The notes under the pieces: generated by a model
Seen by the model: the letters and a program-made list of their open reading frames with translations, nothing else
Told to the model about the DNA's origin: nothing
Database searches by the model: none
IMG/VR virus record: IMGVR_UViG_3300030090_006322
Coordinates: 27,434-91,433 of that record
DNA from: a virus
DNA length: 64,000 nt
Direction: 5' to 3' (one strand)
Shown: one piece after another, positions 2,806-62,919 of the stretch
Layout: each line of letters begins with the position of its first letter
How positions within the stretch are numbered: position 1 is the first letter of the stretch
Program-made: the position numbers and the translations under genes

Positions 2806-3209
2806 AGATAAATATCTTGTTCGCTAAATAAAGATGCTTGTATTTCGTCTTGAGGGTAAACTTCTGCTAATTTTATTTTATTAGCTTGGCAAAAATTTAA
2901 TTTCTTCTCATCTCTTTTGAGTTGATCGGCATATTTAAAATGATTTTTATGAAAGTGTTTAACGAATTTAGTATGTTGAGCGCCTTGAACTTCCACAGCT
3001 ATTTTTTTATTAGCATTGTAGAAATCCAAAGTCAATCTGCTGCCAACAACTCTAAACTCTTCAAACACAATATCATTCTCCCAATATGTTCGCAAAAATT
3101 TTTTTACGTTTGTTTGGAACTTACTCCTGCTAGGTTTGTCCCAATCAATTAAATATTTCTTTGCGTTTTTAAGGTTTCTTTCTTTTCCATACTGGTCAAT
3201 GAACTTCAT
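2802..3209 (-). CDS. DUF559/Vsr-like endonuclease
   Basis: LDFY..KKIAVEVQGAQH..RDEKK pattern. Confidence 0.7.
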   Translation of the reverse strand: MKFIDQYGKERNLKNAKKYLIDWDKPSRSKFQTNVKKFLRTYWENDIVFEEFRVVGSRLTLDFYNANKKIAVEVQGAQHTKFVKHFHKNHFKYADQLKRDEKKLNFCQANKIKLAEVYPQDEIQASLFSEQDIYL

Positions 3210-4315
3210 GCTCCGATTTGTTCTCTGAAATAATTTATCAAAAATTTACATAAATCCTCATCCTGATCCAGTGTTTTGAAAAGATTATTGTCGCCTTGTA
3301 TTTGATCTGGGAAAGTTAAGCTGTTTTCTTTTAAAAGCTCTTGAAAGTCTTCGGTGGGTTTAATCCAAGCACCCTTCTTTTCCACAAATTCCCAAGCGTA
3401 TAACAAGTCTACGATTTCTTTCTCAATCCAAATAGAGTTGCCACCAGATCGATTATATCTGACAGGGTAAGTCAAGCTTACATTAGATTTTTCATTAGGA
3501 GATTTGCAGATTAAAACTTTTGCAAAATGACCAATGATTGGGTTTTTTTTCTCGTCAATAGTTTTTACGCTAGGATTTTGAAGAATCAAATCGGATTTGT
3601 ATCTAGGCTGAAATTGAATAACGCTGTTAGCGTAATGCTGCAAGGCATATCCCCCTGTTGCTACAGACTGTCTAGGGGGTTCTTTAGAGTATTGGTCTCT
3701 CATTTCTGACCTTACCTGACTAATAAAAATAGCCATATGGCCCCTCTTGCCTAAAGCAATGCTGGTTTGTTTGCACCAAGTAGATGCGATGCTAGCTCCT
3801 GCGGCTATTTTGGCGAACTCATCAAAACCTTTAGACGCATCATTCTTGGCGACTAAACCATCAACAGAATCTAATATAAAACAATATTTATGTTTATTCT
3901 TTTCATTGTCAATGAGTTGTTTGATGCAAGTCATTGCTGTTTCATAAATATTCGTTTCTAAAACAAAACAAGTGCCGTCTACCCACTCATCTGCTGACCA
4001 CACAAATTTGACCCCAGACCTCTCTCTCACTTCTTTACCTAACCTGCCTTCAGCTTTAATATACAAGCCTCTGGGTTTTTCTATTGTGTTTAGAAAGTTT
4101 TTCATAACTTCTAAAGCCTCGGAAGTTTTTCCCCCTTCTGTTAGACCAGTAAAGCGATGTAACCCAGGTCCAAACCCTCCATTCATGCACAAATCAAATT
4201 GAAGAGAGCCGCTAGAAACTTTGTAATCGCATTCGTCTTCAAAATTGTAGTGGTCGCTTTTGTTGGATTTCAAGAAATTACCTAGAATATCGTTTGGGTC
4301 TGGTCCTTCACTCAT
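3206..4315 (-). CDS. RecA/UvsX-like recombinase
   Basis: SSGSLQFD..GG, Walker A GLTEGGKT, ILDSV, FISQVR, ATGGYALQHYA. Confidence 0.88.
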   Translation of the reverse strand: MSEGPDPNDILGNFLKSNKSDHYNFEDECDYKVSSGSLQFDLCMNGGFGPGLHRFTGLTEGGKTSEALEVMKNFLNTIEKPRGLYIKAEGRLGKEVRERSGVKFVWSADEWVDGTCFVLETNIYETAMTCIKQLIDNEKNKHKYCFILDSVDGLVAKNDASKGFDEFAKIAAGASIASTWCKQTSIALGKRGHMAIFISQVRSEMRDQYSKEPPRQSVATGGYALQHYANSVIQFQPRYKSDLILQNPSVKTIDEKKNPIIGHFAKVLICKSPNEKSNVSLTYPVRYNRSGGNSIWIEKEIVDLLYAWEFVEKKGAWIKPTEDFQELLKENSLTFPDQIQGDNNLFKTLDQDEDLCKFLINYFREQIGA

Positions 4316-51183: not shown

Positions 51184-52035
51184 TCATAATTTTATTTGCT
51201 TAATTGTGGCGCTAGTTGTCAAAGTTTCGCCACCATTAGTAGAGAGCGATTGTGTTAAAACTCTAGAGCCAGCGTCAAATTTAATTAAATCTACAATCTG
51301 CGACATAGCGGCTGTGCCTCCTATACCACATACGCTGACACTCAACGAGTTAGATAAAGACTGTCCACTAAAATTTATAAGGCTATTCAATCCTGTTGAT
51401 GCCACAGTAAGCTCTTCCTCAACTCCATCGAGCAACATTGAAGAAGCGTTAATTGAACCGATGCCGTAAACGGGAGTTCTGGCGTATTTCCTTGTAAAAC
51501 TTATTTGGCTTTGTGTGTTATTTAAAATATTTGCATTATCATCTATAAGGCAAGTATGACCATAAGCTACTGCGTCACTATCCAAAGGCACAGTCGAACC
51601 ACCGTAAGGGTTGCTATCTCCACTTATAGACCCATCAATAGCAGGATCTAAAGAAACAAAACTAGCATTTAAAGTAACAGCGGCAAAAGGGTTTATATTT
51701 ATAGATACATCCGTTGCATAGCAGTCTCGATACACTCCGCTACCCAATTGAATAATAACAGAACTATCTTGATTTACATCTTTTAAAAAATCTAAACCTG
51801 AAAGCATTCCTGTATGAAATACGCAATCGATAGATATGTTTGCGGATAGAGCTTGTTGAAAACCAAATTGATCAGTAGAATCGATAGTTGTCCCCAACTT
51901 ACGTTTGGGGCTATGATTTGTATTGTAATTTACACTTGCTTGGGTCGCAGGAATATATCCATTCACTTCAGAAGGAAGCGCTGTAGTGCCGATACCACCA
52001 ATATAAACAGGAAACTCACTATAAGGTAAACTCAT
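51184..52035 (-). CDS. tail tube-like virion protein
   Basis: S/T/G-rich; RTPVYGIGS resembles 25624-26436. Confidence 0.5.
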   Translation of the reverse strand: MSLPYSEFPVYIGGIGTTALPSEVNGYIPATQASVNYNTNHSPKRKLGTTIDSTDQFGFQQALSANISIDCVFHTGMLSGLDFLKDVNQDSSVIIQLGSGVYRDCYATDVSININPFAAVTLNASFVSLDPAIDGSISGDSNPYGGSTVPLDSDAVAYGHTCLIDDNANILNNTQSQISFTRKYARTPVYGIGSINASSMLLDGVEEELTVASTGLNSLINFSGQSLSNSLSVSVCGIGGTAAMSQIVDLIKFDAGSRVLTQSLSTNGGETLTTSATIKQIKL

Positions 52036-52438: not shown

Positions 52439-52467
52439 TTTACTTTTGTTTGATTGTGTGCTATAGT
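52439..52467 (+). promoter_or_regulatory. early promoter, leaderless
   Basis: TTTACT-17-TATAGT with extended TG; ATG 6 nt downstream. Confidence 0.75.
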
Positions 52468-52473
52468 TACTAC

Positions 52474-52644
52474 ATGAAAATAAGCAACTTTGAATTGAAC
52501 GACAGCGTAACTTTTAAGCATGGCGAGAGCCTTGAGTTCGTTGACACAGGCATAATCTTTCACATAGAAGATAATTGCCTACACGTTGAGGTCAAAGAAC
52601 TCGATGAGGTCTTTGAGGTAATCGCTGAAGAAATCGTAAAATAA
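52474..52644 (+). CDS. small acidic hypothetical protein
   Basis: Start reassigned to the promoter-proximal ATG. Confidence 0.7.
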   Translation: MKISNFELNDSVTFKHGESLEFVDTGIIFHIEDNCLHVEVKELDEVFEVIAEEIVK

Positions 52645-52657
52645 TACAAAAAAAAAC

Positions 52658-52686
52658 TTGCTTTTAACTTTAACCTGTGCTATAGT
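52658..52686 (+). promoter_or_regulatory. early promoter, leaderless
   Basis: TTGCTT-17-TATAGT; ATG +6. Confidence 0.8.
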
Positions 52687-52692
52687 AGAAAC

Positions 52693-52911
52693 ATGACAGA
52701 AATTAAAAATCAAATTGGAAACGGCGCGGAAATCGTGTCACAAGGTAAATGGTTCATCGTAACTGACACAGACCTAGAAAATGGTCTTGTGTGGGCTATG
52801 GATCAAGACGGCGGCGAGGAAGCAATTTCTCTCGACGCAATCGACGATATCAGACTAGAAGATATCGTAACCCGCGACTGGTCGCCAATGCTCAACAAGT
52901 TGAGCATCTAA
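52693..52911 (+). CDS. small acidic hypothetical protein
   Basis: 72 aa with its own promoter. Confidence 0.75.
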   Translation: MTEIKNQIGNGAEIVSQGKWFIVTDTDLENGLVWAMDQDGGEEAISLDAIDDIRLEDIVTRDWSPMLNKLSI

Positions 52912-52939
52912 AAAAATAAAAAAAAAGATACTTTTACCC

Positions 52940-52968
52940 TTGACTTTTAACTCAAACCCTGCTATAGT
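52940..52968 (+). promoter_or_regulatory. early promoter, leaderless
   Basis: TTGACT-17-TATAGT; ATG +6. Confidence 0.85.
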
Positions 52969-52974
52969 ATAAAT

Positions 52975-53175
52975 ATGTTAGTAATTAATCCAGAACTCCT
53001 AAACCGCACTCGCTACATTGTCACCTTTAACGGCCGCAAGGTCAAGTGTTTCCCTTCAACATATGGCTCTCACAATGGTGAGCCAATCTGCGCGGGTGAA
53101 ATCATGGAGGGCGAACACAAGGGCAAAAACACATCCGTCACAGGTGAAGCCGCTCGCATAGGATGCGAAAAATAA
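52975..53175 (+). CDS. hypothetical protein
   Basis: 66 aa with its own promoter. Confidence 0.72.
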   Translation: MLVINPELLNRTRYIVTFNGRKVKCFPSTYGSHNGEPICAGEIMEGEHKGKNTSVTGEAARIGCEK

Positions 53176-53189
53176 AATAAAATAAAAGC

Positions 53190-53218
53190 TTGCGTTAACT
53201 CCACTTATAAAGTATATT
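53190..53218 (+). promoter_or_regulatory. early promoter, leaderless
   Basis: TTGCGT-17-TATATT; ATG +6. Confidence 0.75.
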
Positions 53219-53224
53219 CTAATC

Positions 53225-53416
53225 ATGACAGAACAAGAAAAAATCGACCAACTAAAAGATCAAATCTTTAAACTCCAAATGGTAATGAAAGGCGTTTCAG
53301 GCATCGCCGCCGCAGGTGCGGCATGGCAAGAGACATCCGCTTTTAACAAGCAGACCTTTAAAAGAATCGAGAGCCAACTTGATGAAGCAGTCGAGGCAAT
53401 CGAGACCACCCACTAA
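53225..53416 (+). CDS. hypothetical protein
   Basis: 63 aa, helical, own promoter. Confidence 0.72.
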   Translation: MTEQEKIDQLKDQIFKLQMVMKGVSGIAAAGAAWQETSAFNKQTFKRIESQLDEAVEAIETTH

Positions 53417-53453
53417 CACACACAAAAAAATCTAACACACACACAAAAAAATC

Positions 53454-53705
53454 ATGAAAAAATTCTTCTCTACTCTCAATCACTTCATTGACCGCTTTCT
53501 ATTCTCTGCTATGGTATGCATAGCGTTTAACTTCGTAATCATCATGATCGCCGTCTTGATTGGTAGCGGTCCCGCACTTTTCGAAAGCGTCTTGCGTGGT
53601 TGGGATGGTGCCGACTTTCTTGTTGTAATGTTAGGACTGCCAGCACTCTGGGCGGTTGTGTGGATGTTAGGGGATGCCCTTGTAAAATGGGTTCACAAAT
53701 TCTAG
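53454..53705 (+). CDS. membrane protein
   Basis: 83 aa with two hydrophobic segments. Confidence 0.7.
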   Translation: MKKFFSTLNHFIDRFLFSAMVCIAFNFVIIMIAVLIGSGPALFESVLRGWDGADFLVVMLGLPALWAVVWMLGDALVKWVHKF

Positions 53706-53730
53706 GCGGGTGACCGCCGCTGTCATGGAG

Positions 53731-53765
53731 CCTCGTCACCGAGTGGAGTCGGTGGCGAGGTTTTT
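53731..53765 (+). terminator. rho-independent terminator
   Basis: CCTCGTCACCGA-gtggag-TCGGTGGCGAGG followed by T5. Confidence 0.8.
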
Positions 53766-53786
53766 ACTTGACAAGAAAATTGCGTT

Positions 53787-53863
53787 GTAAGTCGTTGACG
53801 CTCAACGAGTTACAAGGGCGCGGCCCCCCGCGCCTCGTAAGTCATTGATACTAAGTGAGTTAC
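53787..53863. repeat. 77-bp twin-palindrome element, copy 1
   Basis: GTAAGTCGTTGA-CGC-TCAACGAGTTAC, 23-bp GC spacer, GTAAGTCATTGA-TAC-TAAGTGAGTTAC. Confidence 0.95.
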
Positions 53864-53889
53864 GAAGCAAAAAAAACAATAAAAAAGGC

Positions 53890-53917
53890 TTGTGTTGCGG
53901 GGTGAGTGTGCTATAAT
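53890..53917 (+). promoter_or_regulatory. early promoter, leaderless
   Basis: TTGTGT-16-TATAAT; ATG +6. Confidence 0.78.
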
Positions 53918-53923
53918 ACCCCC

Positions 53924-54091
53924 ATGAGCATCAAAGAAGAGGCCACTAAAACAGATCGCTACATTGTCTACCATCAGTGGTCTAAGGATGAGGAGTTCCG
54001 AGGCACACGGGCCGAGTGCGAGGCTTGGGTTGCAGCGTTCAACCTTCCCAAGTTCGCCAAAACCTTTTTCATCTCCCACGAAAGCAAATAA
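53924..54091 (+). CDS. hypothetical protein
   Basis: MSIKEEATK..; start reassigned. Confidence 0.7.
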   Translation: MSIKEEATKTDRYIVYHQWSKDEEFRGTRAECEAWVAAFNLPKFAKTFFISHESK

Positions 54092-54108
54092 AAAAGATTA
54101 AAAAAGGC

Positions 54109-54136
54109 TTGCGCCCACTCTCACACCTGATATAAT
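54109..54136 (+). promoter_or_regulatory. early promoter, leaderless
   Basis: TTGCGC-16-TATAAT; ATG +6. Confidence 0.8.
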
Positions 54137-54142
54137 ACCCGC

Positions 54143-54364
54143 ATGACAGTTAAGAGAGTCACCGAGTCCCGCTACCATCTCCAGATCGCCGTGCGTGGGG
54201 GCGGCACCTATACGAACGGCGCATTCGACACATATGCGGAAGCGAAGGCATGGCGCAACGCCTACGCCCCCGCTGCCGCGATTGTCTTCCGTTCCGTGTT
54301 GCGCTCCTATAATATGGACGAAGACACCCCCGCCTCTCCCGCGTGGGAATATAGGAATCGCTAA
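54143..54364 (+). CDS. hypothetical protein (GC-rich)
   Basis: 73 aa; GAFDTYAEAKAW resembles an AP2/SPOR-like motif. Confidence 0.7.
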   Translation: MTVKRVTESRYHLQIAVRGGGTYTNGAFDTYAEAKAWRNAYAPAAAIVFRSVLRSYNMDEDTPASPAWEYRNR

Positions 54365-54380
54365 AAAGCGAAAATAAATC

Positions 54381-54408
54381 TTGCGCTTCTCTCAATCTCT
54401 ACTATACT
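54381..54408 (+). promoter_or_regulatory. early promoter, leaderless
   Basis: TTGCGC-16-TATACT; ATG +6. Confidence 0.8.
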
Positions 54409-54414
54409 ACACAC

Positions 54415-54699
54415 ATGACTGAAACAGACATCATGACCCGCCCGTCCGATACCTACTTTGTAGTGACCGCCGCTCACTACGGTGACACCACTAAGCGCTG
54501 GGTTGTGGCTGGCACTGCCAGTCAGACCGAGGCCGTGACTCTGGGTGAGAGGCAGGTCGCTGGGATGGTGAGCGGATTCGCTAACCGTGCCGAGGCACTT
54601 GAGACCTACCCTGACCTTGACCCCAAGCCTACGGGCTGGGACCACGACCCGCAGGGATGGGTTAGCTATATGCGCGACTGGGAGGAACACAGCAACTAA
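54415..54699 (+). CDS. hypothetical protein (GC-rich)
   Basis: 94 aa, own promoter, ends 5 nt before element copy 2. Confidence 0.75.
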   Translation: MTETDIMTRPSDTYFVVTAAHYGDTTKRWVVAGTASQTEAVTLGERQVAGMVSGFANRAEALETYPDLDPKPTGWDHDPQGWVSYMRDWEEHSN

Positions 54700-54704
54700 G
54701 CCTC

Positions 54705-54781
54705 GTAACTCACTGATAGTCAAGGGGTTATGGGGGGCGGCCCCCCGCCGCCTCGTAACTCGTTGACAGTCAACGACTTAC
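54705..54781. repeat. 77-bp twin-palindrome element, copy 2
   Basis: GTAACTCACTGA-TAG-TCAAGGGGTTAT / GTAACTCGTTGA-CAG-TCAACGACTTAC; 50-bp offset. Confidence 0.95.
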
Positions 54782-54930
54782 AAGCCTTTATACGCATGAC
54801 CGATCTGGGGGGCTGTCAAGTAAAAAAACACACTATTTACTATTTATCTATTTATCCCCTGACCTACAGTCTGTGGCCTGTCAAGTATAATTTAAAAGAA
54901 AAAAAAAAGAAAAAAAAGATTAAAAAAGGG

Positions 54931-54959
54931 TTGCACTAAAAACAAAAGTGTGGTATACT
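54931..54959 (+). promoter_or_regulatory. early promoter
   Basis: TTGCAC-17-TATACT; ATG +9. Confidence 0.8.
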
Positions 54960-54968
54960 TACAGCATC

Positions 54969-55139
54969 ATGACAGAGACAAAATCAGATCTTCAACAACT
55001 CCTCCAAGAACAGACTGCGGTCGCACTTATGAGAGACGACATCTCGTTTCTTATCGGTTGGACTAAAGCCGACAATCCAGAAATCGCTCAAAGACTTGAG
55101 GACATCTTGGCTAATCACACAAAAAATAGAAATAAGTAA
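54969..55139 (+). CDS. hypothetical protein
   Basis: MTETKSDLQQLL.. Confidence 0.7.
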   Translation: MTETKSDLQQLLQEQTAVALMRDDISFLIGWTKADNPEIAQRLEDILANHTKNRNK

Positions 55140-55140
55140 A

Positions 55141-55332
55141 ATGATAAATCGAATCGATCAAATCCTAGCAAACCTAAACTGTGCCGCTGTAGATGGCGGC
55201 TTCTGCCTCTTTGTAAAAGATGGCGAAATTGTAGCGAAGGATCTTCTTAGCGAAGAGCCTCTTGAGTTTAATATCAGATTCGTCGGAACTGACATCTCTG
55301 ACATCGAAGCAAAACCACTCACCAAAAAGTAA
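55141..55332 (+). CDS. hypothetical protein
   Basis: MINRIDQIL..; starts 1 nt after the previous stop. Confidence 0.68.
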   Translation: MINRIDQILANLNCAAVDGGFCLFVKDGEIVAKDLLSEEPLEFNIRFVGTDISDIEAKPLTKK

Positions 55333-55333
55333 C

Positions 55334-55708
55334 ATGGGACTAGACCAATACGCAAAAAAAGTAAAGAGGGAATACAATCATGAGACCCTCACCGAGACAA
55401 TCGTCAAAACTGAAATAGGTTACTGGCGTAAACACAATGCACTAGAAGGTTACATGGCTGACCTTTACCGCACTAAGACAGGAGATCAGGGAGAGTTTAA
55501 TTGTAAAACTCTTTCTCTTGATAAAGACGACTTGGACACCTTGGAAGCGGTGGTAATAAGAGGCAACCTGCCCGAAACCGTAGGTTTCTTTTTCGGTAGT
55601 TGCACCAAGGACAACGAGGAATACAAAGAAAATGATCTTGAGTTTATAGCGAAGGCTAGGAAATGCCTTGCTAATGGCTTTGAGGTAGAATATACATCTT
55701 GGTGGTGA
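55334..55708 (+). CDS. conserved phage protein of unknown function
   Basis: MGLDQY..YWRKHNAL..LPETVGFFFG..YTSWW pattern recurrent in phages. Confidence 0.8.
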   Translation: MGLDQYAKKVKREYNHETLTETIVKTEIGYWRKHNALEGYMADLYRTKTGDQGEFNCKTLSLDKDDLDTLEAVVIRGNLPETVGFFFGSCTKDNEEYKENDLEFIAKARKCLANGFEVEYTSWW

Positions 55709-55890
55709 TGAGAGAAGGAGCATACAACAAACAACAAACGCATAGCGACCGACAAATGCAATATATGACTCACCTTTCTAAAAGTGTTGGTGAGGCTTGC
55801 GATGCGTGGCTGGAAAAAAGAGGGATGAAACAAAAAAGTTGGAGGCAGCAAAAAGATGAGAAATTCCAGAAAAAAAACTTGACACCGTAA
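55708..55890 (+). CDS. hypothetical protein
   Basis: TGATG coupling; stop codon is the TAA of element copy 3. Confidence 0.55.
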   Translation: MREGAYNKQQTHSDRQMQYMTHLSKSVGEACDAWLEKRGMKQKSWRQQKDEKFQKKNLTP

Positions 55891-55963
55891 CTCCTTAAGC
55901 CTCAACGACTTAGGAGGGCGCGGCCCCCCGCGCCGCGTAACTCGTTGATAGTCAACGACTTAC
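55887..55963. repeat. 77-bp twin-palindrome element, copy 3
   Basis: GTAACTCCTTAA-GCC-TCAACGACTTAG / GTAACTCGTTGA-TAG-TCAACGACTTAC. Confidence 0.95.
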
Positions 55964-56000
55964 AGGGCAAAAAAAAGATCATAAAAAAAGAAAAAAAGCC

Positions 56001-56028
56001 TTGCGGCTCTGTGAGTCTGTGCTATGTT
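56001..56028 (+). promoter_or_regulatory. early promoter, leaderless
   Basis: TTGCGG-16-TATGTT with extended TG; ATG +6. Confidence 0.72.
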
Positions 56029-56034
56029 ACCAGC

Positions 56035-56241
56035 ATGACAGTTCAAAATCCTATTGGCCAACTCGCCCCTATGAATGAAACCGACCTACGCGAAATGCTC
56101 GATGACGGGCCACGCGCAGGTTGCTGGAACCCTTCGCCTGATGAGGTGCAGGAGGTTCTCGCGCAGATCCACGCCGATATGGGCGACCGCCACCCGCAGT
56201 GGTCCTCGGATGTCGAGGATCAAGATGAGATCCCAATGTAA
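56035..56241 (+). CDS. small acidic hypothetical protein
   Basis: MTVQNPIGQL..; start reassigned. Confidence 0.7.
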   Translation: MTVQNPIGQLAPMNETDLREMLDDGPRAGCWNPSPDEVQEVLAQIHADMGDRHPQWSSDVEDQDEIPM

Positions 56242-56265
56242 TTGTAACCCTCTACCCCTAAAATC

Positions 56266-56505
56266 ATGAACCAGAGCAATATCTATAAAATGACAGAAAT
56301 CGAATACCAGCAGAACCCGCCTTCGTGCGGGGGCAACTGGGAGTGTGGGTCTGTGACCCGTGTGTGTATGTCGCGCTCGCCCAAGGTGGCGGTCGCGATG
56401 GCGGGGGATATCACCGTGCGCTATGAGGGTGTGGACGGTGTGCCTATCATGCGCCAGCGCATTCTCACCAAGGGCGGCAAAGTGATCTTCGATAAGTGGG
56501 ATTAA
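56266..56505 (+). CDS. hypothetical protein
   Basis: 79 aa; ends 5 nt before element copy 4. Confidence 0.68.
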   Translation: MNQSNIYKMTEIEYQQNPPSCGGNWECGSVTRVCMSRSPKVAVAMAGDITVRYEGVDGVPIMRQRILTKGGKVIFDKWD

Positions 56506-56510
56506 GCCGC

Positions 56511-56587
56511 GTAACTCACTAAGTCTCAACGACTTAGGGGGGCGCGGGGGCCGCGCCCTCGTAACTCCTTGATAATCAACGAGTTAT
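56511..56587. repeat. 77-bp twin-palindrome element, copy 4 (inverted spacer)
   Basis: GTAACTCACTAA-GTC-TCAACGACTTAG / GTAACTCCTTGA-TAA-TCAACGAGTTAT. Confidence 0.95.
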
Positions 56588-56624
56588 GAAGCAAAATAAA
56601 AATGCATTTAAATGCAAAAAAACA

Positions 56625-56653
56625 TTGCTATTTAACTATTTATGGGTTACTAT
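56625..56653 (+). promoter_or_regulatory. early promoter, leaderless
   Basis: TTGCTA-17-TACTAT; ATG +7. Confidence 0.7.
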
Positions 56654-56660
56654 TTGAACC

Positions 56661-56966
56661 ATGAGAACAGACGACAAGCAAAGACAAGAAGTTACTTTGG
56701 AGCGCAGGATCTGCGACCGCTGTAGAGATGTTGATGGATTGACCTTCGGTTACATCGGTAACTTTGAAAGCTGGGGAGATGATCGCAAGCTTTTCATCTG
56801 GATTAATGAGGATGAGATGAGAGAGAAGAATGGCAATCAAGCTGCTCTCTGGGAGTGTGTTGCTCGCGATCTTAATGTGAAAGATGCCTGTCTCGCTCTT
56901 GCGGCAATCAAAGGTTTTCAGATGGGTAAGCTCTATAGCTCTATCAAAATCAACAAGAAGCTCTAA
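56661..56966 (+). CDS. hypothetical protein
   Basis: 101 aa, own promoter. Confidence 0.75.
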   Translation: MRTDDKQRQEVTLERRICDRCRDVDGLTFGYIGNFESWGDDRKLFIWINEDEMREKNGNQAALWECVARDLNVKDACLALAAIKGFQMGKLYSSIKINKKL

Positions 56967-57184
56967 TGAAGACACGCATACACGTTAACCAGCACAAGAT
57001 CCGCAGTAATGCAAAGACTGGCGAGAGGGAGCCAGTGCTTACGGTCAAGACTTACAAAAGCAACACTTACTGCAAGACGGTCAACATAAACGGCCCTTGT
57101 AAAGTTGTTTACTCGCCTGATAACCCGCTGCCCTGCGGTGCGAAGGTCTGGATTGAAACAGAAGAAGGTGTTGTATGTGATTGA
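56966..57184 (+). CDS. conserved small phage protein
   Basis: IHVNQHKIRSN..PVLTVK..YSPD.PLPCGAKVWIET pattern; 3' end overlaps element copy 5. Confidence 0.8.
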   Translation: MKTRIHVNQHKIRSNAKTGEREPVLTVKTYKSNTYCKTVNINGPCKVVYSPDNPLPCGAKVWIETEEGVVCD

Positions 57185-57249
57185 TACTTAACGACTTATG
57201 CGGGTCGCGGGGCCGCGCCCCCGTAACTCGTTGATGCTCAACGAGTTAG
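57173..57249. repeat. 77-bp twin-palindrome element, copy 5 (inverted spacer, left arm degenerate)
   Basis: GTATGTGATTGA-TAC-TTAACGACTTAT / GTAACTCGTTGA-TGC-TCAACGAGTTAG. Confidence 0.9.
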
Positions 57250-57296
57250 ACAACATAATACGCAGAAAAAAAAATCATTTTAATGCAAAAAAAAGG

Positions 57297-57324
57297 TTGC
57301 AAAGCCTATTTGTTGTGATATACT
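57297..57324 (+). promoter_or_regulatory. early promoter, leaderless
   Basis: TTGCAA-16-TATACT; ATG +6. Confidence 0.8.
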
Positions 57325-57330
57325 ACGTCC

Positions 57331-57693
57331 ATGAAATTGAGATTCCCCAAACTCTGGAGCAAAAAAAATAACAAATTGCCCCTTGACTTAACCCCGCTTA
57401 TGCCTTATACTACCATTATGAAAAACGAAATCATGTCCACCCCATCCACCCTTCCTTCCAACCCTATCGCACTTGCCTCCGCACTGACTGGCAAGACTTT
57501 GGTATACAACGCTCGCAAGTCTACTGTTACCAGTGACAAGATGCGTGTGTTCAAAGTCGAGAAAGTCGATGACGTATTCACATCCGACTCCTCTGGTCAG
57601 CAGTGCGTAACCCTTTGGGCAAAGGATATCGACCAAGGCGGTCGCTTGGTCCCTCGGACCTTGCACGTTGTCGGTATCGAATCAGTTTCATAG
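57331..57693 (+). CDS. hypothetical protein with a second in-frame start at 57418
   Basis: 120 aa or 91 aa; both starts have promoters. Confidence 0.7.
   Translation: MKLRFPKLWSKKNNKLPLDLTPLMPYTTIMKNEIMSTPSTLPSNPIALASALTGKTLVYNARKSTVTSDKMRVFKVEKVDDVFTSDSSGQQCVTLWAKDIDQGGRLVPRTLHVVGIESVS
57383..57411 (+). promoter_or_regulatory. internal early promoter, leaderless
   Basis: TTGACT-17-TATACT; ATG +6 (57418). Confidence 0.82.
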
Positions 57694-57769
57694 AGGGGAA
57701 ACATGATAGCGGGGGGGTGAGGTTGTTTTTGCTTATGTTCTACCTCACCTCCCTGCACTCACTTTTTAC

Positions 57770-57798
57770 TTTACAAACAACAAACCATACATTACATT
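57770..57798 (+). promoter_or_regulatory. early promoter, leaderless
   Basis: TTTACA-17-TACATT; ATG +6. Confidence 0.65.
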
Positions 57799-57804
57799 AG
57801 CATC

Positions 57805-58023
57805 ATGCCTAAATCACCAGAATCGATTCGTATCGAAGTTAAAAATAAAGACCAAGCCGCATTGCTTAACTATGCCTTGGGTATCGTTCACCAAACTCTA
57901 GCTGAAAGAATGTCAGAGGTAGCAGACGATAAGCTCGACAATTTTATGGACAATGTGAAGTGGACACGCAAACACGCTTCCGCATTGAACGAAAAGTTTT
58001 CTTTGGCTCCAACCGAGTCATAG
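57805..58023 (+). CDS. hypothetical protein
   Basis: 72 aa. Confidence 0.72.
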   Translation: MPKSPESIRIEVKNKDQAALLNYALGIVHQTLAERMSEVADDKLDNFMDNVKWTRKHASALNEKFSLAPTES

Positions 58024-58029
58024 AAATTC

Positions 58030-58368
58030 GGAGCGGAACCGCAAAGCGATACTGGATATCCAGAAGCTCCTAAAAAACAACTTCACCTGAATTCTCTGTG
58101 GCTAGGGTGTCGTAAAACGCACAGAGGCTCCCAGCGTGTGGGCAAATAAACCGCTAGGTGGTAACAGTGACCAACTCTTAATTGACTGGCACTCGTCAAC
58201 AAGCCGACCCTCTCCCACTTTTCTAGACAGTGGGAGGGGGATATAACTTTCTGGAGGAAAGCCCCAACGGAGTGCTACCACAGATTGAAGCCGTCGATAG
58301 TGGTTCTTTAACCTAGAGCGGTCTTTAAATAGACCTTAATGACTCGAAACTATCGGCGGTTTCTTTTT
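58030..58368 (+). ncRNA. candidate structured non-coding RNA
   Basis: No substantial ORF; several stems with G-U pairs on the + strand; ends in a 15-bp stem plus T-tract. Confidence 0.55.
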
Positions 58369-58386
58369 GTTCTGTTAACTCAAGTC

Positions 58387-58463
58387 ATAACTCATTGATA
58401 CTGAACGACTTAGCGGGGCGCGGCCCCCCGCGCCGCGTAACTCGTTGATACTCAACGACTTAC
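58387..58463. repeat. 77-bp twin-palindrome element, copy 6
   Basis: ATAACTCATTGA-TAC-TGAACGACTTAG / GTAACTCGTTGA-TAC-TCAACGACTTAC. Confidence 0.95.
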
Positions 58464-58534
58464 GAGGCAAAAACAAGCACAGCTTTCTGGGTATGTCAAG
58501 CAGAAAAAAAATAAAAAAATAAAACAAAAAAGGG

Positions 58535-58562
58535 TTGCATGAAATGAATTTTTCGGTATACT
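58535..58562 (+). promoter_or_regulatory. early promoter, leaderless
   Basis: TTGCAT-16-TATACT; ATG +6. Confidence 0.8.
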
Positions 58563-58568
58563 ACTGGC

Positions 58569-59384
58569 ATGAGCTTAATCCTAGCCAAAAACAAAGTCAC
58601 TCGCGAACAACTTGTGAGTGCTGATTCGGACGCAGGTCTGATCATCGAAGGATTGGGTAAGAACGGCGTGGTCGCTAAGACCCCCGACCCAACCGACACC
58701 CACACCCCTATTCCCCACGCGCTTCTCGTTGATGAGGCGCATGAGGCTTTGGACCGCGCAGGTCTAGAGGTGTTGGAGGAAGAACACGCCCTTGGGCGTG
58801 GTGGACTCCGCTACTTTGGTGGCTTCGCCATCAAGGGGACGGATATGGAAGCAAGCGACCGCCGTTTGGTGGTTGGGCTTCGTAACGCGCACGACAAGTC
58901 CTTTGCGGCTTCCGTGTGCATCGGTAACCAGATGATGGTTTGCGAGAATCTTTGCTTCTCTTCGGATGTGAAGCTCGCTCGCCGTCATACAGCCAACATC
59001 GTGCGCGACTTGCCTCGCGTCCTTTCTTCGGCTGTGTCTCGCGTCATCTCCCACTGGAGTGACATGGGCAAGCGCATCGACGCTTACCAAGCGACCGAGG
59101 TTGCTCGCGACCGCGCCGCTGACCTCATCGTCAGCCTTGTGGACGCGAAAGCGTTTCCTGCTCGCGATGTCTACAAGGCAGTGCAGGAATTCCGTAACCC
59201 TCGCCATGAGGAGTTCAAAGGCGGCTCTCTGTGGACCCTTTACAACGGGATCACGGAGAATCTCAAAGGCGGTGACTTGACCAAGTTGCCACAGCGCACA
59301 ATGACTGTGCAGTCTGTCTTCGACAGGATCGCGGGGCATAGCCCCGAAATCCTCGATGCCGAGGAGGTCGCGCTTCCCGCATAA
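58569..59384 (+). CDS. DUF932-family protein
   Basis: GLRNAHDKS..G..MVCENLCF..RRHT..SLWTLYNGITE. Confidence 0.8.
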   Translation: MSLILAKNKVTREQLVSADSDAGLIIEGLGKNGVVAKTPDPTDTHTPIPHALLVDEAHEALDRAGLEVLEEEHALGRGGLRYFGGFAIKGTDMEASDRRLVVGLRNAHDKSFAASVCIGNQMMVCENLCFSSDVKLARRHTANIVRDLPRVLSSAVSRVISHWSDMGKRIDAYQATEVARDRAADLIVSLVDAKAFPARDVYKAVQEFRNPRHEEFKGGSLWTLYNGITENLKGGDLTKLPQRTMTVQSVFDRIAGHSPEILDAEEVALPA

Positions 59385-59400
59385 GGGGTGAACCCATCAC

Positions 59401-59434
59401 AGACCCGCTTCCCGAAAGGGGGGCGGGTTTTTTT
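59401..59434 (+). terminator. rho-independent terminator
   Basis: ACCCGCTTCCC-GAAA-GGGGGGCGGGT followed by a T-tract. Confidence 0.9.
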
Positions 59435-59484
59435 GTGCAGAAATAAAAAAGTTTTTCTTGACACGCGTTTAAGTAAGAAGGCTT

Positions 59485-59561
59485 GTAACTCGTTGAGTAT
59501 CAACGAGTTAGGGCGGCGCGGCCCCCGCGCCCTCGTAACTCCTTCAGCGTCAACGACTTAC
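59485..59561. repeat. 77-bp twin-palindrome element, copy 7
   Basis: GTAACTCGTTGA-GTA-TCAACGAGTTAG / GTAACTCCTTCA-GCG-TCAACGACTTAC. Confidence 0.95.
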
Positions 59562-59586
59562 GACTTGAATTAAAATGAATTTTAAT

Positions 59587-59614
59587 TTGACCAACCCTAT
59601 ACTTATGGTATAAT
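59587..59614 (+). promoter_or_regulatory. early promoter, leaderless
   Basis: TTGACC-16-TATAAT; ATG +6. Confidence 0.85.
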
Positions 59615-59620
59615 ACGCGC

Positions 59621-59803
59621 ATGGAAACGATAACTACTAAATCTTTTTGTGTTGATTATTGGGACTCTAAAGGCAATCACCTTTTGACTTCTGCCTATTG
59701 TAATAATACTGGATCTGAAGTTGACACCGAGCAATATGCTGATAAGAATCGCCCAATGCGTAATTGTATTTGGGAAGTCACAGAAATGAAACAAGAAGAC
59801 TAA
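59621..59803 (+). CDS. hypothetical protein
   Basis: 60 aa, own promoter. Confidence 0.7.
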   Translation: METITTKSFCVDYWDSKGNHLLTSAYCNNTGSEVDTEQYADKNRPMRNCIWEVTEMKQED

Positions 59804-59805
59804 TC

Positions 59806-60021
59806 ATGGCTAATTCATATAATATAAGTTATAGTGTTATTGAGAGACATCCCGCACCATTCGACTTTATCTTTGAGTGGGACAATGGAACAGAAAAAAC
59901 ATTTATAGTTGTTTCATTGCATGGCGCGAAGGCACTAGCCGAAACATTTGAAAACTTCGGTTACGAACGCGAAGAGGGAAGCATTGAGTTCAGGAAAAAC
60001 TACGCGGTCGAATTCCCTTGA
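59806..60021 (+). CDS. hypothetical protein
   Basis: MANSYNISY..; starts 2 nt after the previous stop. Confidence 0.68.
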   Translation: MANSYNISYSVIERHPAPFDFIFEWDNGTEKTFIVVSLHGAKALAETFENFGYEREEGSIEFRKNYAVEFP

Positions 60022-60038
60022 ATAAAAATTAATTTAAA

Positions 60039-60066
60039 TTGACAAGCCCAGGAAATAGTGTATACT
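60039..60066 (+). promoter_or_regulatory. early promoter, leaderless
   Basis: TTGACA-16-TATACT; ATG +7. Confidence 0.88.
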
Positions 60067-60073
60067 CCCTCCT

Positions 60074-60763
60074 ATGTCCAAGCTTCTAAATTCAGGAAAT
60101 CATAAAACAAGCAAGGGCGAAAAGTATGGTTGGATAACCTACGGCTTGCACCTTGCACCATATAACTTATCAGGAAAAAATGTTTGCTCTTCTGCTTCTG
60201 CTGGTTGTTCTACTGCTTGTCTCAATACTGCTGGTCGTGGAATCATGCATTCCGTTCAAGATGCCCGAGTTAAAAAAACACGAAGGTTTTTCGAGGATCG
60301 GGATGGATTCCTATCGCAGCTATACAAGGAAATCAAAAGCTCGATTAAAAGCGCAACGAGAAAACAAATAAATCATTGCTTCCGTTTGAATCTCACAAGT
60401 GATATTCCGTGGGAGAGTATGGTCGTAAAACAATTCCCCCAATCACAGTTCTACGACTATACTAAACACCTAAAAAGATTCGTTCGGTTCTTGGAAGGTA
60501 AACTGCCAAGCAACTATCACCTTACTTACTCAAGAGATGAGACAACACCTGATACATTGGTAAAGAGCTTGTGTGCAAGTGGTGGCAATGTGGCTGTTGT
60601 GTTTAGAGGAAAAAAGCTCCCCGCCAGATGGCTTGGAATAGAAGTAATAGATGGCGACGATTCGGACTTGCGTTTTCAAGATGGTGAGGGTAAGATAGTC
60701 GGGTTGCTAGAGAAAGGTCTAGCCAAGAAAGATGAAACGGGGTTTGTTGTTGAGCCATGCTAG
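60074..60763 (+). CDS. Gp88-like protein (radical-SAM-like three-Cys motif)
   Basis: NVCSSASAGCSTACL, RLNLTSDI, FYDYTK, NYHLTYS, DGDDSDLRF. Confidence 0.75.
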   Translation: MSKLLNSGNHKTSKGEKYGWITYGLHLAPYNLSGKNVCSSASAGCSTACLNTAGRGIMHSVQDARVKKTRRFFEDRDGFLSQLYKEIKSSIKSATRKQINHCFRLNLTSDIPWESMVVKQFPQSQFYDYTKHLKRFVRFLEGKLPSNYHLTYSRDETTPDTLVKSLCASGGNVAVVFRGKKLPARWLGIEVIDGDDSDLRFQDGEGKIVGLLEKGLAKKDETGFVVEPC

Positions 60764-60828
60764 ACCCTAATTGGATTGTAATAGTAATGGCTCTCCTGTT
60801 AACCTTAACTTGTTATAGAAAAAGATGA
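60757..60828 (+). CDS. 23-aa hydrophobic peptide (not in ORF track)
   Basis: MLDPNWIVIVMALLLTLTCYRKR; overlaps both neighbours. Confidence 0.45.
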   Translation: MLDPNWIVIVMALLLTLTCYRKR

Positions 60829-61049
60829 AGAAACCAAAAATCACATGGGAAGAGGGCATGACAAAATGCCTGGGCCTTTATACAGAAGCGCTGTTCAGGG
60901 GTGACAAGGACGAAGCTATAGATATCGGTCATCAGATGATCGCTATTGGAAAAACTCTGGACAGCACACAAAAGTTCCTAGAGAAACAAAACAAAACTTA
61001 CGATCAGTTCGGAGAGACTGTAAAAGCAATAAACACCAACTTAAACTAA
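60825..61049 (+). CDS. hypothetical protein
   Basis: 74 aa. Confidence 0.68.
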   Translation: MKKPKITWEEGMTKCLGLYTEALFRGDKDEAIDIGHQMIAIGKTLDSTQKFLEKQNKTYDQFGETVKAINTNLN

Positions 61050-61213
61050 TGGATACATCAGCCAACGCACTAATAGATGACTTGAACGATATACTGTCTG
61101 ACTTTAAGAGTCATATGGTAGAAGCGTATGAAGAGAGAGAAGATGAGATGGAAGAGAAGATCGACAATCTCATAAAAGAAGTAAACGAATTGTTTAGCTC
61201 TAGCTATGTCTAA
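61049..61213 (+). CDS. 54-aa highly acidic helical protein (not in ORF track)
   Basis: MDTSANALIDDLNDILSDFKSHMVEAYEEREDEMEEKIDNLIKEVNELFSSSYV; TAATG coupling. Confidence 0.68.
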   Translation: MDTSANALIDDLNDILSDFKSHMVEAYEEREDEMEEKIDNLIKEVNELFSSSYV

Positions 61214-61418
61214 AAAAACAGGAGGCAGACCGCGCAAAACGAAAGGTTTAATTGATGTGGCTAGATGGATGCCCCAGATAAGGCGGGTGTGTAGTCGCCA
61301 ACTTGTTTTGAATCAGCTAGATGCACTAGAGCGAGATCATACACTATCTGAAGGTAGGGTGGGAATAAAACATCGCATAGCGCAGATTAAAAAAGATGTA
61401 GCTAGGATACAGTTGTAA
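61206..61418 (+). CDS. basic hypothetical protein
   Basis: 70 aa; stop codon is the TAA of element copy 8. Confidence 0.65.
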   Translation: MSKKTGGRPRKTKGLIDVARWMPQIRRVCSRQLVLNQLDALERDHTLSEGRVGIKHRIAQIKKDVARIQL

Positions 61419-61491
61419 CTCCTTGAGAATCAAGGGGTTACGGGGGCGCGGGGGCGCTCGCCTCGTAACTCGTTGAGTATCAGTGACTTAT
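61415..61491. repeat. 77-bp twin-palindrome element, copy 8 (inverted spacer)
   Basis: GTAACTCCTTGA-GAA-TCAAGGGGTTAC / GTAACTCGTTGA-GTA-TCAGTGACTTAT. Confidence 0.95.
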
Positions 61492-61512: not shown

Positions 61513-61540
61513 AAAAAGAAAACCCGCAGTTACGCGGGTT
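61513..61540 (-). terminator. terminator at the convergence point
   Basis: AACCCGC-N6-GCGGGTT with a U-tract on the minus strand. Confidence 0.7.
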
Positions 61541-61585
61541 CACTTATTTATTTGATTCTATTTGATCCTGCCTTATATTATTTAG

Positions 61586-62731: not shown

Positions 62732-62804
62732 TGGGAGCGACAGGATTCGAACCTGTAACCTAACGATTATGAGTCGCTTGCTCTGACCATTGAGCTACAC
62801 TCCC
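62732..62804 (-). tRNA. tRNA with CAT anticodon, most likely tRNA-Ile2 (lysidine type)
   Basis: Cloverleaf GGGAGTG..AGCGA-CTCATAA-TCGTT..GGTTCGAATCC..CGCTCCC-A; anticodon arm GCGACTCATAATCG resembles bacterial Ile2; no encoded CCA. Confidence 0.9.
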
Positions 62805-62846: not shown

Positions 62847-62919
62847 TGGGTGTGGCGGGATTCGAACCCGCACTTTACAGATTTTAAGTCTGTTGCCTCT
62901 GCCGTTGGGCTACACACCC
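62847..62919 (-). tRNA. tRNA-Leu(TAA) with a short variable loop
   Basis: GGGTGTG..ACAGA-CTTAAAA-TCTGT-AAAGT-GCGGG-TTCGAAT-CCCGC-CACACCC-A; 73 nt. Confidence 0.9.

Follow-up and report, generated by a model that had tools for sequence, protein, structure and literature searches.

Paired palindromes with putative IHF-type sites at the early gene junctions of an uncultured marine phage

A paired-palindrome element between early gene units

The window analysed here, a 64-kb stretch (64,000 nucleotides) of a 91,433-bp viral contig (IMG/VR record IMGVR_UViG_3300030090_006322), comes from an uncultured marine phage whose small early gene units are separated by eight copies of a 77-bp element between positions 53787 and 61491. 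The copies (E1 to E8; no strand is assigned to any of them) align without gaps over 84 nt and start where the original prediction had placed them, as both the alignment and a consensus scan confirmed. Each comprises two 27-bp units, every unit being a palindrome around a centre triplet (12-3-12), with a G+C-rich 23-bp core between them, and in all eight copies (16 palindromes) the two palindromes start exactly 50 bp apart, as had been claimed for the window. The palindrome proved to be longer than originally described by one C/G pair per side; its head reads GTAAC, and in the best copies the symmetry is perfect. Tolerating up to five mismatches, the scan recovered all palindromes but one (15 of 16), with the pairs at a constant 50 bp, and otherwise none in the window; the one missed, at 57173, contains the end of the upstream gene and is degenerate for that reason (seven mismatches). 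Shuffled sequence, used as a control, gave zero palindrome matches, and there were none elsewhere in the contig outside these eight places, which upholds the earlier statement that the first 52 kb of the window are free of copies and adds to it a single isolated perfect half-site (at about 51341-51352, no strand assigned) within a minus-strand open reading frame. The spacers were also as anticipated, nearly pure in G and C (87-100% G+C) and able to form a G+C hairpin in seven of the eight copies.

All elements lie in a single region, with one at each junction, and occupy the 3' end of every unit, often starting at the stop codon; no target-site duplications were apparent by eye. E1 (53787-53863; palindrome, 23-bp GC core, palindrome) is preceded by a canonical terminator, read from the sequence as an intrinsic terminator-like hairpin followed by a T run (53731-53766, plus strand). 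E2 (54705-54781) begins 5 nt past the stop of a 94-aa gene and is 100% identical to its ortholog in the relative L119, and the TAA in the first palindrome of E3 (55887-55963) is the stop codon of the upstream gene. The left and right borders of a cassette missing from another relative, L086, are formed by E4 (56511-56587) and by E5 (57173-57249), the copy with the degenerate first palindrome. E6 (58387-58463) is preceded by a 340-nt conserved non-coding stretch and E7 (59485-59561) by a canonical intrinsic terminator (59401-59440, plus strand). E8 (61415-61491), whose TAA again stops the upstream gene, ends the plus-strand array; a bidirectional terminator (61520-61541) and a convergent gene lie 3' of it, without a promoter.

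About 800 copies of the same palindrome were found, spread over more than 100 stretches of uncultured phages. Its spacing in relatives has a mode of 50 bp, with minor classes at 58 and 34 bp and also spacings of 48-52 bp, and the supposedly invariant 50-bp register is thus not kept in relatives, although 50 bp dominates. Because 50, 58 and 34 bp differ by non-integral helical turns, the paired sites need not form one fixed three-dimensional unit. Spacers of the class at about 50 bp (48-52 bp) are 86% G+C, with no sign of selection for hairpins in their cores (z = -0.3 against shuffles); those at exactly 50 bp are hypervariable at fixed length (167 of 208 unique), which points to a geometric constraint and agrees with the earlier view of fixed geometry with drifting sequence. 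In the 58-60-bp class the core consists of a hairpin and a T run that point the same way as the genes in every case that could be scored (47 of 47), and the 58-bp-class core in relatives is a true intrinsic terminator. Spacers are homogenised within genomes by concerted evolution (identity 0.71 within genomes versus 0.55 between; 0 of 300 permutations reached it).

The large terminase subunit (TerL) of the phage has distant matches only (<30% identity), its 2157-aa tape-measure protein is siphophage-like, and it has no T4-like relatives. Neither megablast nor blastn gave a DNA match in cultured phage records, Rfam at a permissive threshold returned nothing at the elements, and full-text literature searches retrieved unrelated primers only for the arm sequences and no description of the element by keyword.

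Promoters and cassette seams

A promoter lies downstream of seven of the eight elements. After E1, the plus-strand sigma-70-like promoter (53890-53926) consists of a -35, 17 nt and an extended -10, with an ATG 6 nt past the -10 and 40 bp between the palindrome centre and the start of the -35. The promoters and start codons after E2 to E7, all on the plus strand, span 54931-54971, 56001-56037, 56625-56663, 57297-57333, 58535-58571 and 59587-59623, at distances of 163, 51, 51, 61, 85 and 39 bp, respectively, the last with 11 of 12 consensus matches. Five further promoters at 52.4-53.7 kb, all without an element, and the lack of a promoter downstream of E8 count against the junction-module reading preferred below. 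Among 79 non-homologous modules, the distance from the centre of the promoter-proximal palindrome to the -35 is helically phased (R = 0.44 at 10.5 bp; random-anchor maximum R = 0.26), and five of the seven window promoters share the common phase. This phasing, which could partly stem from A-tract units of about 10-11 bp in the gap between palindrome and promoter, points to promoter architecture or insulation over silencing, contrary to the suggestion of an operator that silences early genes; for a role in DNA entry or segregation, or as a decoy, nothing was found in support.

Whole cassettes are deleted or replaced exactly at elements in three close relatives (L086, L046 and L119), with the left joints in the promoter or at the ATG, not within the element. 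Over all relatives, alignment ends are weakly enriched at elements (21% versus 14%), so the case for recombination rests on the three close relatives. The original prediction saw no recombinase in the window, but a UvsX-like (RecA-family) recombinase is encoded there on the minus strand (3206-4315) and is the likely engine of inter-element recombination. Neither a tyrosine (PF00589) nor a serine (PF00239) recombinase was detected in this contig or in two to three relatives (about 80% complete), and a Y1 transposase (PF01797), absent from this contig, two relatives, Akkermansia and Fibrobacter, was found only in a Saprospiraceae genome. Cassette exchange looks like general homologous recombination: of the recombination site once proposed, the exchange seam is supported and a dedicated site-specific enzyme is not.

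Double-stranded DNA sites and an IHF-type consensus

Variable arm pairs show no covariation among 543 unique copies: their Watson-Crick fraction is what independent positions would give, and C-G at pair 9-19 was observed twice against about 14 predicted from base frequencies. In 416 copies oriented by coding strand, G-U on the transcribed strand (252) was no commoner than A-C (236). The absence of both covariation and a wobble excess indicates that the palindromes behave as paired, symmetric double-stranded DNA protein sites, and at this level the predicted paired protein-binding site is supported. Predicted RNA folds are inconsistent between copies, with neither compensatory stem changes nor, in the window, a U tract after the G+C hairpins; an RNA or single-stranded DNA hairpin model was rejected on covariation, wobble counts and these inconsistent folds.

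IHF has a 13-bp consensus, with kinked steps 9 bp apart (10.1101/382655). At least one strand bears its core in 94% of the palindrome copies, and half of the copies (50%) have the whole consensus. The search pattern left the centre triplets free, and in 67% of copies they supply the bases that complete the consensus, against about 37% expected from a rough composition estimate of our own. In the central TTG-N5-CAA the TT and AA steps are 9 bp apart, giving both the consensus match and the kinked-step spacing of an IHF site, and the palindrome arms are, judged by their sequence, a mirror-doubled IHF-type consensus. Two positions in the 'N4' part of that consensus are more than 90% conserved in the palindromes, which suggests base-specific reading beyond that of E. 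coli IHF and is a point against the IHF reading.

Single copies of the same palindrome are also present in Fibrobacter, Akkermansia and Bacteroidota chromosomes (reversed-pattern controls, 0), where the neighbouring genes have no common function and where, in 55 bacterial loci, no placement in CRISPR leaders was seen; these copies, like the IHF-type arms, contradict the statement that the element matches no recognised family. Fibrobacter and Akkermansia have one IHF-like paralog each, and in 11 of 30 Fibrobacteraceae genomes a conserved palindrome copy abuts the ATG of the IHF-like gene, with no other palindrome match at those loci; no copy lies upstream of the Akkermansia gene. Most of the bacterial copies belong to Fibrobacterota, Bacteroidota and Verrucomicrobiota, whereas the phage promoters look sigma-70-like, which counts against the IHF reading. 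No HU/IHF gene was found in this contig, in two relatives or across related loci totalling about 1 Mb, so the host would have to supply the binder, the most likely candidate being an IHF-like member of the HU/IHF family.

Alternative readings and the proposed junction module

That the elements act as RNA, as three hairpins or one long hairpin at early mRNA 3' ends with a role in termination, exonuclease protection or RNase III processing, would suit their place at every unit's 3' end, often from the stop codon, the strong folding of element RNA (z = -2.7 to -6.3) and the true terminator core of the 58-bp class; RNase III processing sites lie between T7 early genes. We nevertheless regard this as improbable, because covariation is absent, transcribed-strand G-U is no commoner than A-C, folds differ between copies, cores of the class at about 50 bp (48-52 bp) fold no better than shuffles, hairpins in the window have no U tract and the bacterial copies sit in divergent promoter regions. 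Least credible are selfish REP/BIME- or MITE-like mobile repeats merely accumulating in a tolerant region: the palindromes are paired in intergenic DNA, and in Saprospiraceae and Akkermansia they lie within dispersed composite repeats, one copy adjoining a Y1 transposase gene, but the phages have no such gene and the elements no target duplication, are limited to one region with one per junction, are phased with promoters and keep a 27-bp sequence conserved across phyla. REP/BIME repeats are imperfect palindromes that conserve a 5' GTAG and have a mismatch in the stem (PMC3333891), whereas the head here is GTAAC, the best copies are perfect and the Y1 (RAYT) transposase is missing. E. coli BIME-1, in which an IHF site occupies the linker of two inverted REPs (PMC3333891), resembles the element as an extragenic palindrome pair that ends transcription units and joins G+C-rich palindromic DNA to IHF-type sites, and in its proposed roles as terminator, mRNA stabiliser or topological insulator; the phage element differs in its inverted layout, with IHF-type sites flanking the G+C core, in having no GTAG head, stem mismatch or REP-associated Y1 transposase, and in its confinement to one phage region.

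Operators for another dimeric regulator, either a phage middle-phase repressor of all early promoters or a non-IHF host factor (for example, of the YbaB/EbfC or helix-turn-helix type), are a possible if unlikely reading: the double-stranded DNA behaviour and phasing suit any dimeric binder, positions 6, 7, 21 and 22 are conserved though unread by IHF, and GTnAC motifs lie at the palindrome ends. No co-occurring phage gene has a recognisable DNA-binding domain, however; bacterial chromosomes carry the same palindrome at scattered sites without a prophage-like setting, one of its places is the Fibrobacter IHF-like gene, and its centre-triplet preference fits the IHF consensus. Dedicated site-specific recombination sites (integron- or shufflon-like), cut by an enzyme that moves promoter-gene-element units, would account for cassettes gained, lost and replaced exactly at elements, for the rigid architecture and for the IHF-type sites, which are typical accessory sites of site-specific recombination. 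Such sites seem very unlikely given the missing tyrosine and serine recombinases and Y1 transposase in relatives about 80% complete, the variable and odd-numbered 3-bp centre, left joints at the promoter or ATG, as expected for homologous exchange, and concerted spacer evolution, which also suits general recombination; and whereas integron attC sites have a cognate recombinase and keep structure as sequence varies, the element conserves sequence and not pairing. A DUF932 protein accompanies elements in more than 50 loci, and there is a small chance that the twin sites are parts of a phage cassette-exchange system, in which an IHF-like protein would fold the junction synapse and a phage enzyme (candidates are the DUF932 protein or an ERCC4-type nuclease) would cut or resolve it; promoter-gene-element units would then move discretely between phages, an integron-like gene capture without a known integrase.

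To the reading we prefer we give roughly an even chance: the element would be a junction module of double-stranded DNA that separates one early transcription unit from the next, bearing IHF-type sites and acting as both a terminator/promoter junction and a recombination seam. The two 27-bp palindromes would be symmetric sites for a dimeric DNA-bending protein, presumably host IHF-like, around a length-constrained, G+C-rich core that can form a small G+C hairpin here and is a full intrinsic terminator in one related class. The module would end the upstream unit by providing stop codons and, in some lineages, a terminator too, and bent DNA would be held in a constant helical orientation ahead of the A-tract/-35 region that belongs to the next strong early promoter, aiding that promoter and/or insulating neighbouring units. 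The analysis shows the behaviour as double-stranded sites, the phasing, the terminator core of relatives and the swapping of cassettes; which protein binds, that it bends the DNA and how transcription responds are what we infer. As the same approximately 77 bp and a conserved promoter recur between all units, they are also portable homology, which the UvsX-like recombination system may use to delete, insert or replace cassettes.

Single IHF sites lie upstream of the phage early promoters lambda pL and Mu Pe. Phage IHF sites, including the lambda H' site (10.1101/382655), share with the element the consensus core and 9-bp kinked-step spacing, and a position, on a set helical face, about 70-120 bp ahead of the start of a strong early promoter of the sigma-70 type. 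They differ in that in the element, whose binding is putative, the site is a perfect palindrome made by mirror doubling, which would suit a homodimer, always has a second copy 50 bp away and recurs at every junction. Promoter-early stem-loops (PeSLs) belong to the hyperplastic regions of T4-type myoviruses, with recombination mini-circles in infected cells (PMC2839356, PMC4122927). They resemble the element, as we read it, in being compact terminator/promoter composites that recur among the small early genes of a hyperplastic region, and in serving as homology patches where relatives gain, lose or replace genes, in phages with their own UvsX-type recombinase. As the closest precedent, which the original prediction took them to be, PeSLs fit in that the joints of indels and replacements in L086, L046 and L119 fall in the repeated motif; they do not fit in that this phage is siphophage-like (long tape-measure protein) and not a T4-type myovirus. 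For the PeSL pairing of an early sigma-70-type promoter with a terminator stem-loop the picture is mixed: seven of eight elements are followed by a promoter, a true terminator core occurs only in the 58-bp class of relatives, and the G+C hairpins of the window have no U tract. PeSLs also lack the twin 27-bp protein-site palindromes that enclose a G+C core in the element, whose main class does not keep the stem-loop as a conserved structure and whose palindrome is common to bacterial chromosomes. Our verdict is that the element would work like a PeSL, built from putative IHF-type sites.

If the junction-module reading is true, a large group of uncultured aquatic phages assembles a fast-evolving early region, probably of host-takeover and anti-defence genes, from standard junctions, each of which would close the upstream gene, dock a host DNA-bending protein, set the next strong promoter and offer homology for swaps. 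This would explain how such regions stay expressible despite turnover in gene content, and would provide a sequence tag with which islands of accessory genes could be found in metagenomic phages. Judging by the bacterial copies, the little-studied IHF-like proteins of Fibrobacterota, Verrucomicrobiota and Bacteroidota may have a conserved binding motif; these copies may also hint at the host range of the element-bearing phages.

Element array and its gene setting

The window makes up the final 64 kb of its source record, which is 91,433 bp long (estimated 82% complete); the phage genes include those for a 2157-aa tape-measure protein, a large terminase, a ribonucleotide reductase and a DnaB-like helicase; no close cultured relative of the phage was found. 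Repeat finding returned a single family of eight 84-nt copies in an ungapped register, bearing out the predicted 77-bp elements (E1-E8, starting at 53787, 54705, 55887, 56511, 57173, 58387, 59485 and 61415), each composed of two 27-bp palindromes around a 23-bp GC-rich core. The predicted 50-bp register within the window also held: a consensus scan (≤5 mismatches) recovered 15 of the 16 palindromes, invariably at a 50-bp spacing, and none elsewhere in the window, with zero matches in shuffled sequence and none in the remainder of the 91,433-bp contig. The copy at 57173 (E5) is degenerate because the upstream open reading frame (ORF) terminates within it. Cores in the window were 87-100% G+C and, in agreement with the predicted spacer hairpin, 7 of the 8 could form a 7-bp G+C hairpin.

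Every element marks the 3′ end of a small plus-strand unit; in three cases, the first palindrome supplies that unit's stop codon, TAA or TGA. Canonical terminators precede two elements. Downstream of seven of the eight come an A-rich tract and a sigma-70-like promoter whose -10 hexamer is 6-9 nt ahead of an ATG; the last ends the array, facing a convergent gene. G+C content between successive elements alternates (0.54, 0.41, 0.54, 0.44, 0.45, 0.54 and 0.40), compared with 0.36 for the core genome. Among genes of the cassettes (small early gene units between two elements), only a DUF932 protein and a GP88-family protein received family assignments; their homologs occur in 53 and 44 related loci, respectively, and those of a 120-aa ORF (57331-57693) in 41. 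In twin elements of related loci, TAA and TGA occur in two frames of every palindrome, twin palindromes at 50 or 58 bp close all three frames in both directions, and an ORF ends on a palindrome stop in 54 of 342 elements.

Several further features of this region were observed. The DUF932 (58569-59384) and GP88-family (60074-60763) genes are the most widely retained of the element-adjacent genes, and a 70-aa protein (61206-61418) with an N-terminal, AT-hook-like GRPRK motif was found in only two related loci. Across 52440-61420, an extended -10 hexamer lies 6-9 nt ahead of the start in nearly all early genes, so early mRNAs would have little or no leader; five extended -10 promoter units at 52.4-53.7 kb have no twin element. 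An ORF-free 340 nt upstream of E6 (58030-58368), 83-92% conserved in several relatives (L116, L126, L096 and L124), may be a structured RNA and had no Rfam match. Just past the array, two minus-strand tRNA genes (62732-62804 and 62847-62919) are contained in a 115-bp tandem duplication.

Across relatives, the spacing between the -35 hexamer and the centre of the palindrome nearest the promoter was periodic. With homologous spacers collapsed to 79 clusters, R was 0.44 at a period of 10.5 bp (n ~64, Rayleigh P ~5 × 10−6), compared with R = 0.14 at 12 bp and a mean of 0.10 (maximum 0.26) for random anchors. The window distances are 40, 163, 51, 51, 61, 85 and 39 bp, and 5 of the 7 promoters match the family phase. 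This helical phasing indicates that the element, beyond ending the previous unit, is built into the region upstream of the next promoter as part of its architecture; phased A-tracts between the palindrome and the -35 hexamer may contribute to the periodicity.

Distribution and conserved properties of the element

A strict pattern scan of viral contigs yielded at least 119 stretches with the palindrome, and 798 palindromes were counted in ~1 Mb of these loci. The fixed 50-bp spacing of the window did not extend unchanged to these relatives: 50 bp was the commonest distance to the next palindrome (208 cases), but 48-52 bp with 50 excluded (67), 58 bp (55) and 34 bp (10) also occurred. On two ~107-kb contigs, palindromes were again grouped in one 3-7-kb region. 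Nothing similar was found in cultured phage records, Rfam or the literature.

Scanning one genome per prokaryote species for the palindrome returned 42 loci (chance expectation <1, by our own estimate from the information content of the pattern), most of them in Fibrobacter and the others in Akkermansia, Saprospiraceae, Flavobacteriaceae, other Bacteroidota, Verrucomicrobiales and Lentisphaerae; 4 of the 42 were twin elements on short or phage-like contigs. Whole-genome counts at ≤3 mismatches were 120 palindromes in a Saprospiraceae genome, 35 in an Akkermansia genome and 23 in a Fibrobacter genome, with 0 for the reversed-pattern control. In the Akkermansia genome (G002, loci L170-L182), a second, different palindrome (~24 bp, GTAG/CTAC-like ends) lies a few bases from the 27-bp palindrome, the pair occupying divergent intergenic regions by polysaccharide, SNF2-helicase and dynamin-like genes. 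In the Saprospiraceae genome (G004, loci L188-L207), an A+T-richer form of the 27-bp palindrome sits within a dispersed composite repeat whose other parts are a short C-rich motif and a hairpin resembling a terminator. One copy is ~70 bp upstream of a Y1-transposase gene. On Bacteroidales and Verrucomicrobiales contigs (L143, L167 and L160), the palindrome is flanked by short direct-repeat runs resembling replication-origin iterons.

Sequence variation among copies bears on whether the palindromes act as double-stranded DNA or as a folded strand. Across 543 unique copies, the Watson-Crick fraction at every variable arm pair equalled the independent-column expectation (observed/expected 0.48/0.51, 0.52/0.49, 0.69/0.73 and 0.63/0.65), and compensatory double changes in the arms were rarer than chance. 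Among 416 copies oriented by the local coding strand, there were 252 G-U and 236 A-C pairs, and the predicted RNA fold was three hairpins in some copies and one long hairpin in others. Independent arm columns, near-equal G-U and A-C counts and inconsistent folds together argue that the palindromes behave as symmetric double-stranded DNA sites. Between them, cores of the ~50-bp class (palindromes 48-52 bp apart) have a fixed length, a G+C content of 86% and hypervariable sequences (the 208 at exactly 50 bp include 167 unique ones), with no hairpin folding beyond that of shuffles (z = -0.3), indicating that it is length and composition that are conserved. In the 58-60-bp class, cores fold strongly (z = -2.6) into tetraloop hairpins accompanied by a T run, and in all 47 scorable cases their orientation matches that of the genes.

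A candidate binding protein

The invariant palindrome positions correspond to the IHF core in both arms; 94% of copies have this core on one strand or both, and 50% contain the complete 13-bp IHF consensus. The three centre bases were left free in the search pattern, and ~67% of centre triplets complete the consensus (~37% expected, from our own composition estimate). The central TTG-N5-CAA places TT and AA steps 9 bp apart. In the lambda H′ complex, IHF kinks the DNA at precisely these two steps. The two IHF kinks are likewise 9 bp apart (10.1101/382655). Fibrobacter and Akkermansia each encode one IHF-like paralog alongside HU-type ones; a perfectly symmetric site is what a homodimer would suit. 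The ATG of the IHF-like gene is adjoined by a conserved palindrome copy in 11 of 30 Fibrobacteraceae genomes. This copy comprises one complete arm, a T run and the outermost part of the second arm, and the opposite strand shows an A-tract and then the IHF consensus; a scan of the 30 loci at ≤7 mismatches placed 6 of 6 matches at that ATG and none elsewhere. This arrangement looks like autoregulation. Some bacterial copies lie between iteron-like repeats or directly after tRNA genes; iteron-type repeats and tRNA gene ends are classic IHF settings. Counting against IHF, two positions that it does not read are >90% conserved in the palindrome. Also counting against it, no palindrome was found upstream of the Akkermansia IHF-like gene, no HU/IHF gene was found in the phages, and 55 bacterial loci gave no association of the palindrome with CRISPR leaders. 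Judged from these sequence features, an IHF-like protein is a candidate binder of the palindromes with roughly an even chance of being the right one.

Recombination seams and known systems

In one related locus (L086), a single element stands in place of E4, two genes and E5, aligning as E4-like up to its second palindrome and then with the promoter that follows E5. In two others (L046 and L119), whose flanks share ~80-98% identity with the window, the interval from E1 to E2, which in the window carries three G+C-rich genes, is taken by one unrelated gene of 81 aa; one joint falls at the start codon and the other at the element's first base. Cassette order is changed in other relatives, and over all distant relatives alignment ends were weakly enriched at elements. 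Spacer identity was 0.71 within genomes versus 0.55 between them (0 of 300 permutations), a pattern as would be expected from gene conversion. Contrary to the original prediction that no recombinase was visible in the window, a UvsX-like recombinase is encoded there, and the phage also carries an ERCC4-type nuclease; no tyrosine recombinase, serine recombinase or Y1 transposase was found in the phage.

In function, the junction appears to resemble the PeSL (promoter-early stem-loop) of T4-type phages, a composite of terminator and promoter through which modules are shuffled (PMC4122927), although the phage here has no T4-type context. In make-up, it is similar to Escherichia coli BIME-1, in which palindromes occur together with an IHF site and for which terminator and insulator roles have been proposed (PMC3333891), but it has neither a GTAG head nor a RAYT. 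Given these differences, the element is outside both the PeSL and BIME-1 families, and it is common across uncultured aquatic phages.
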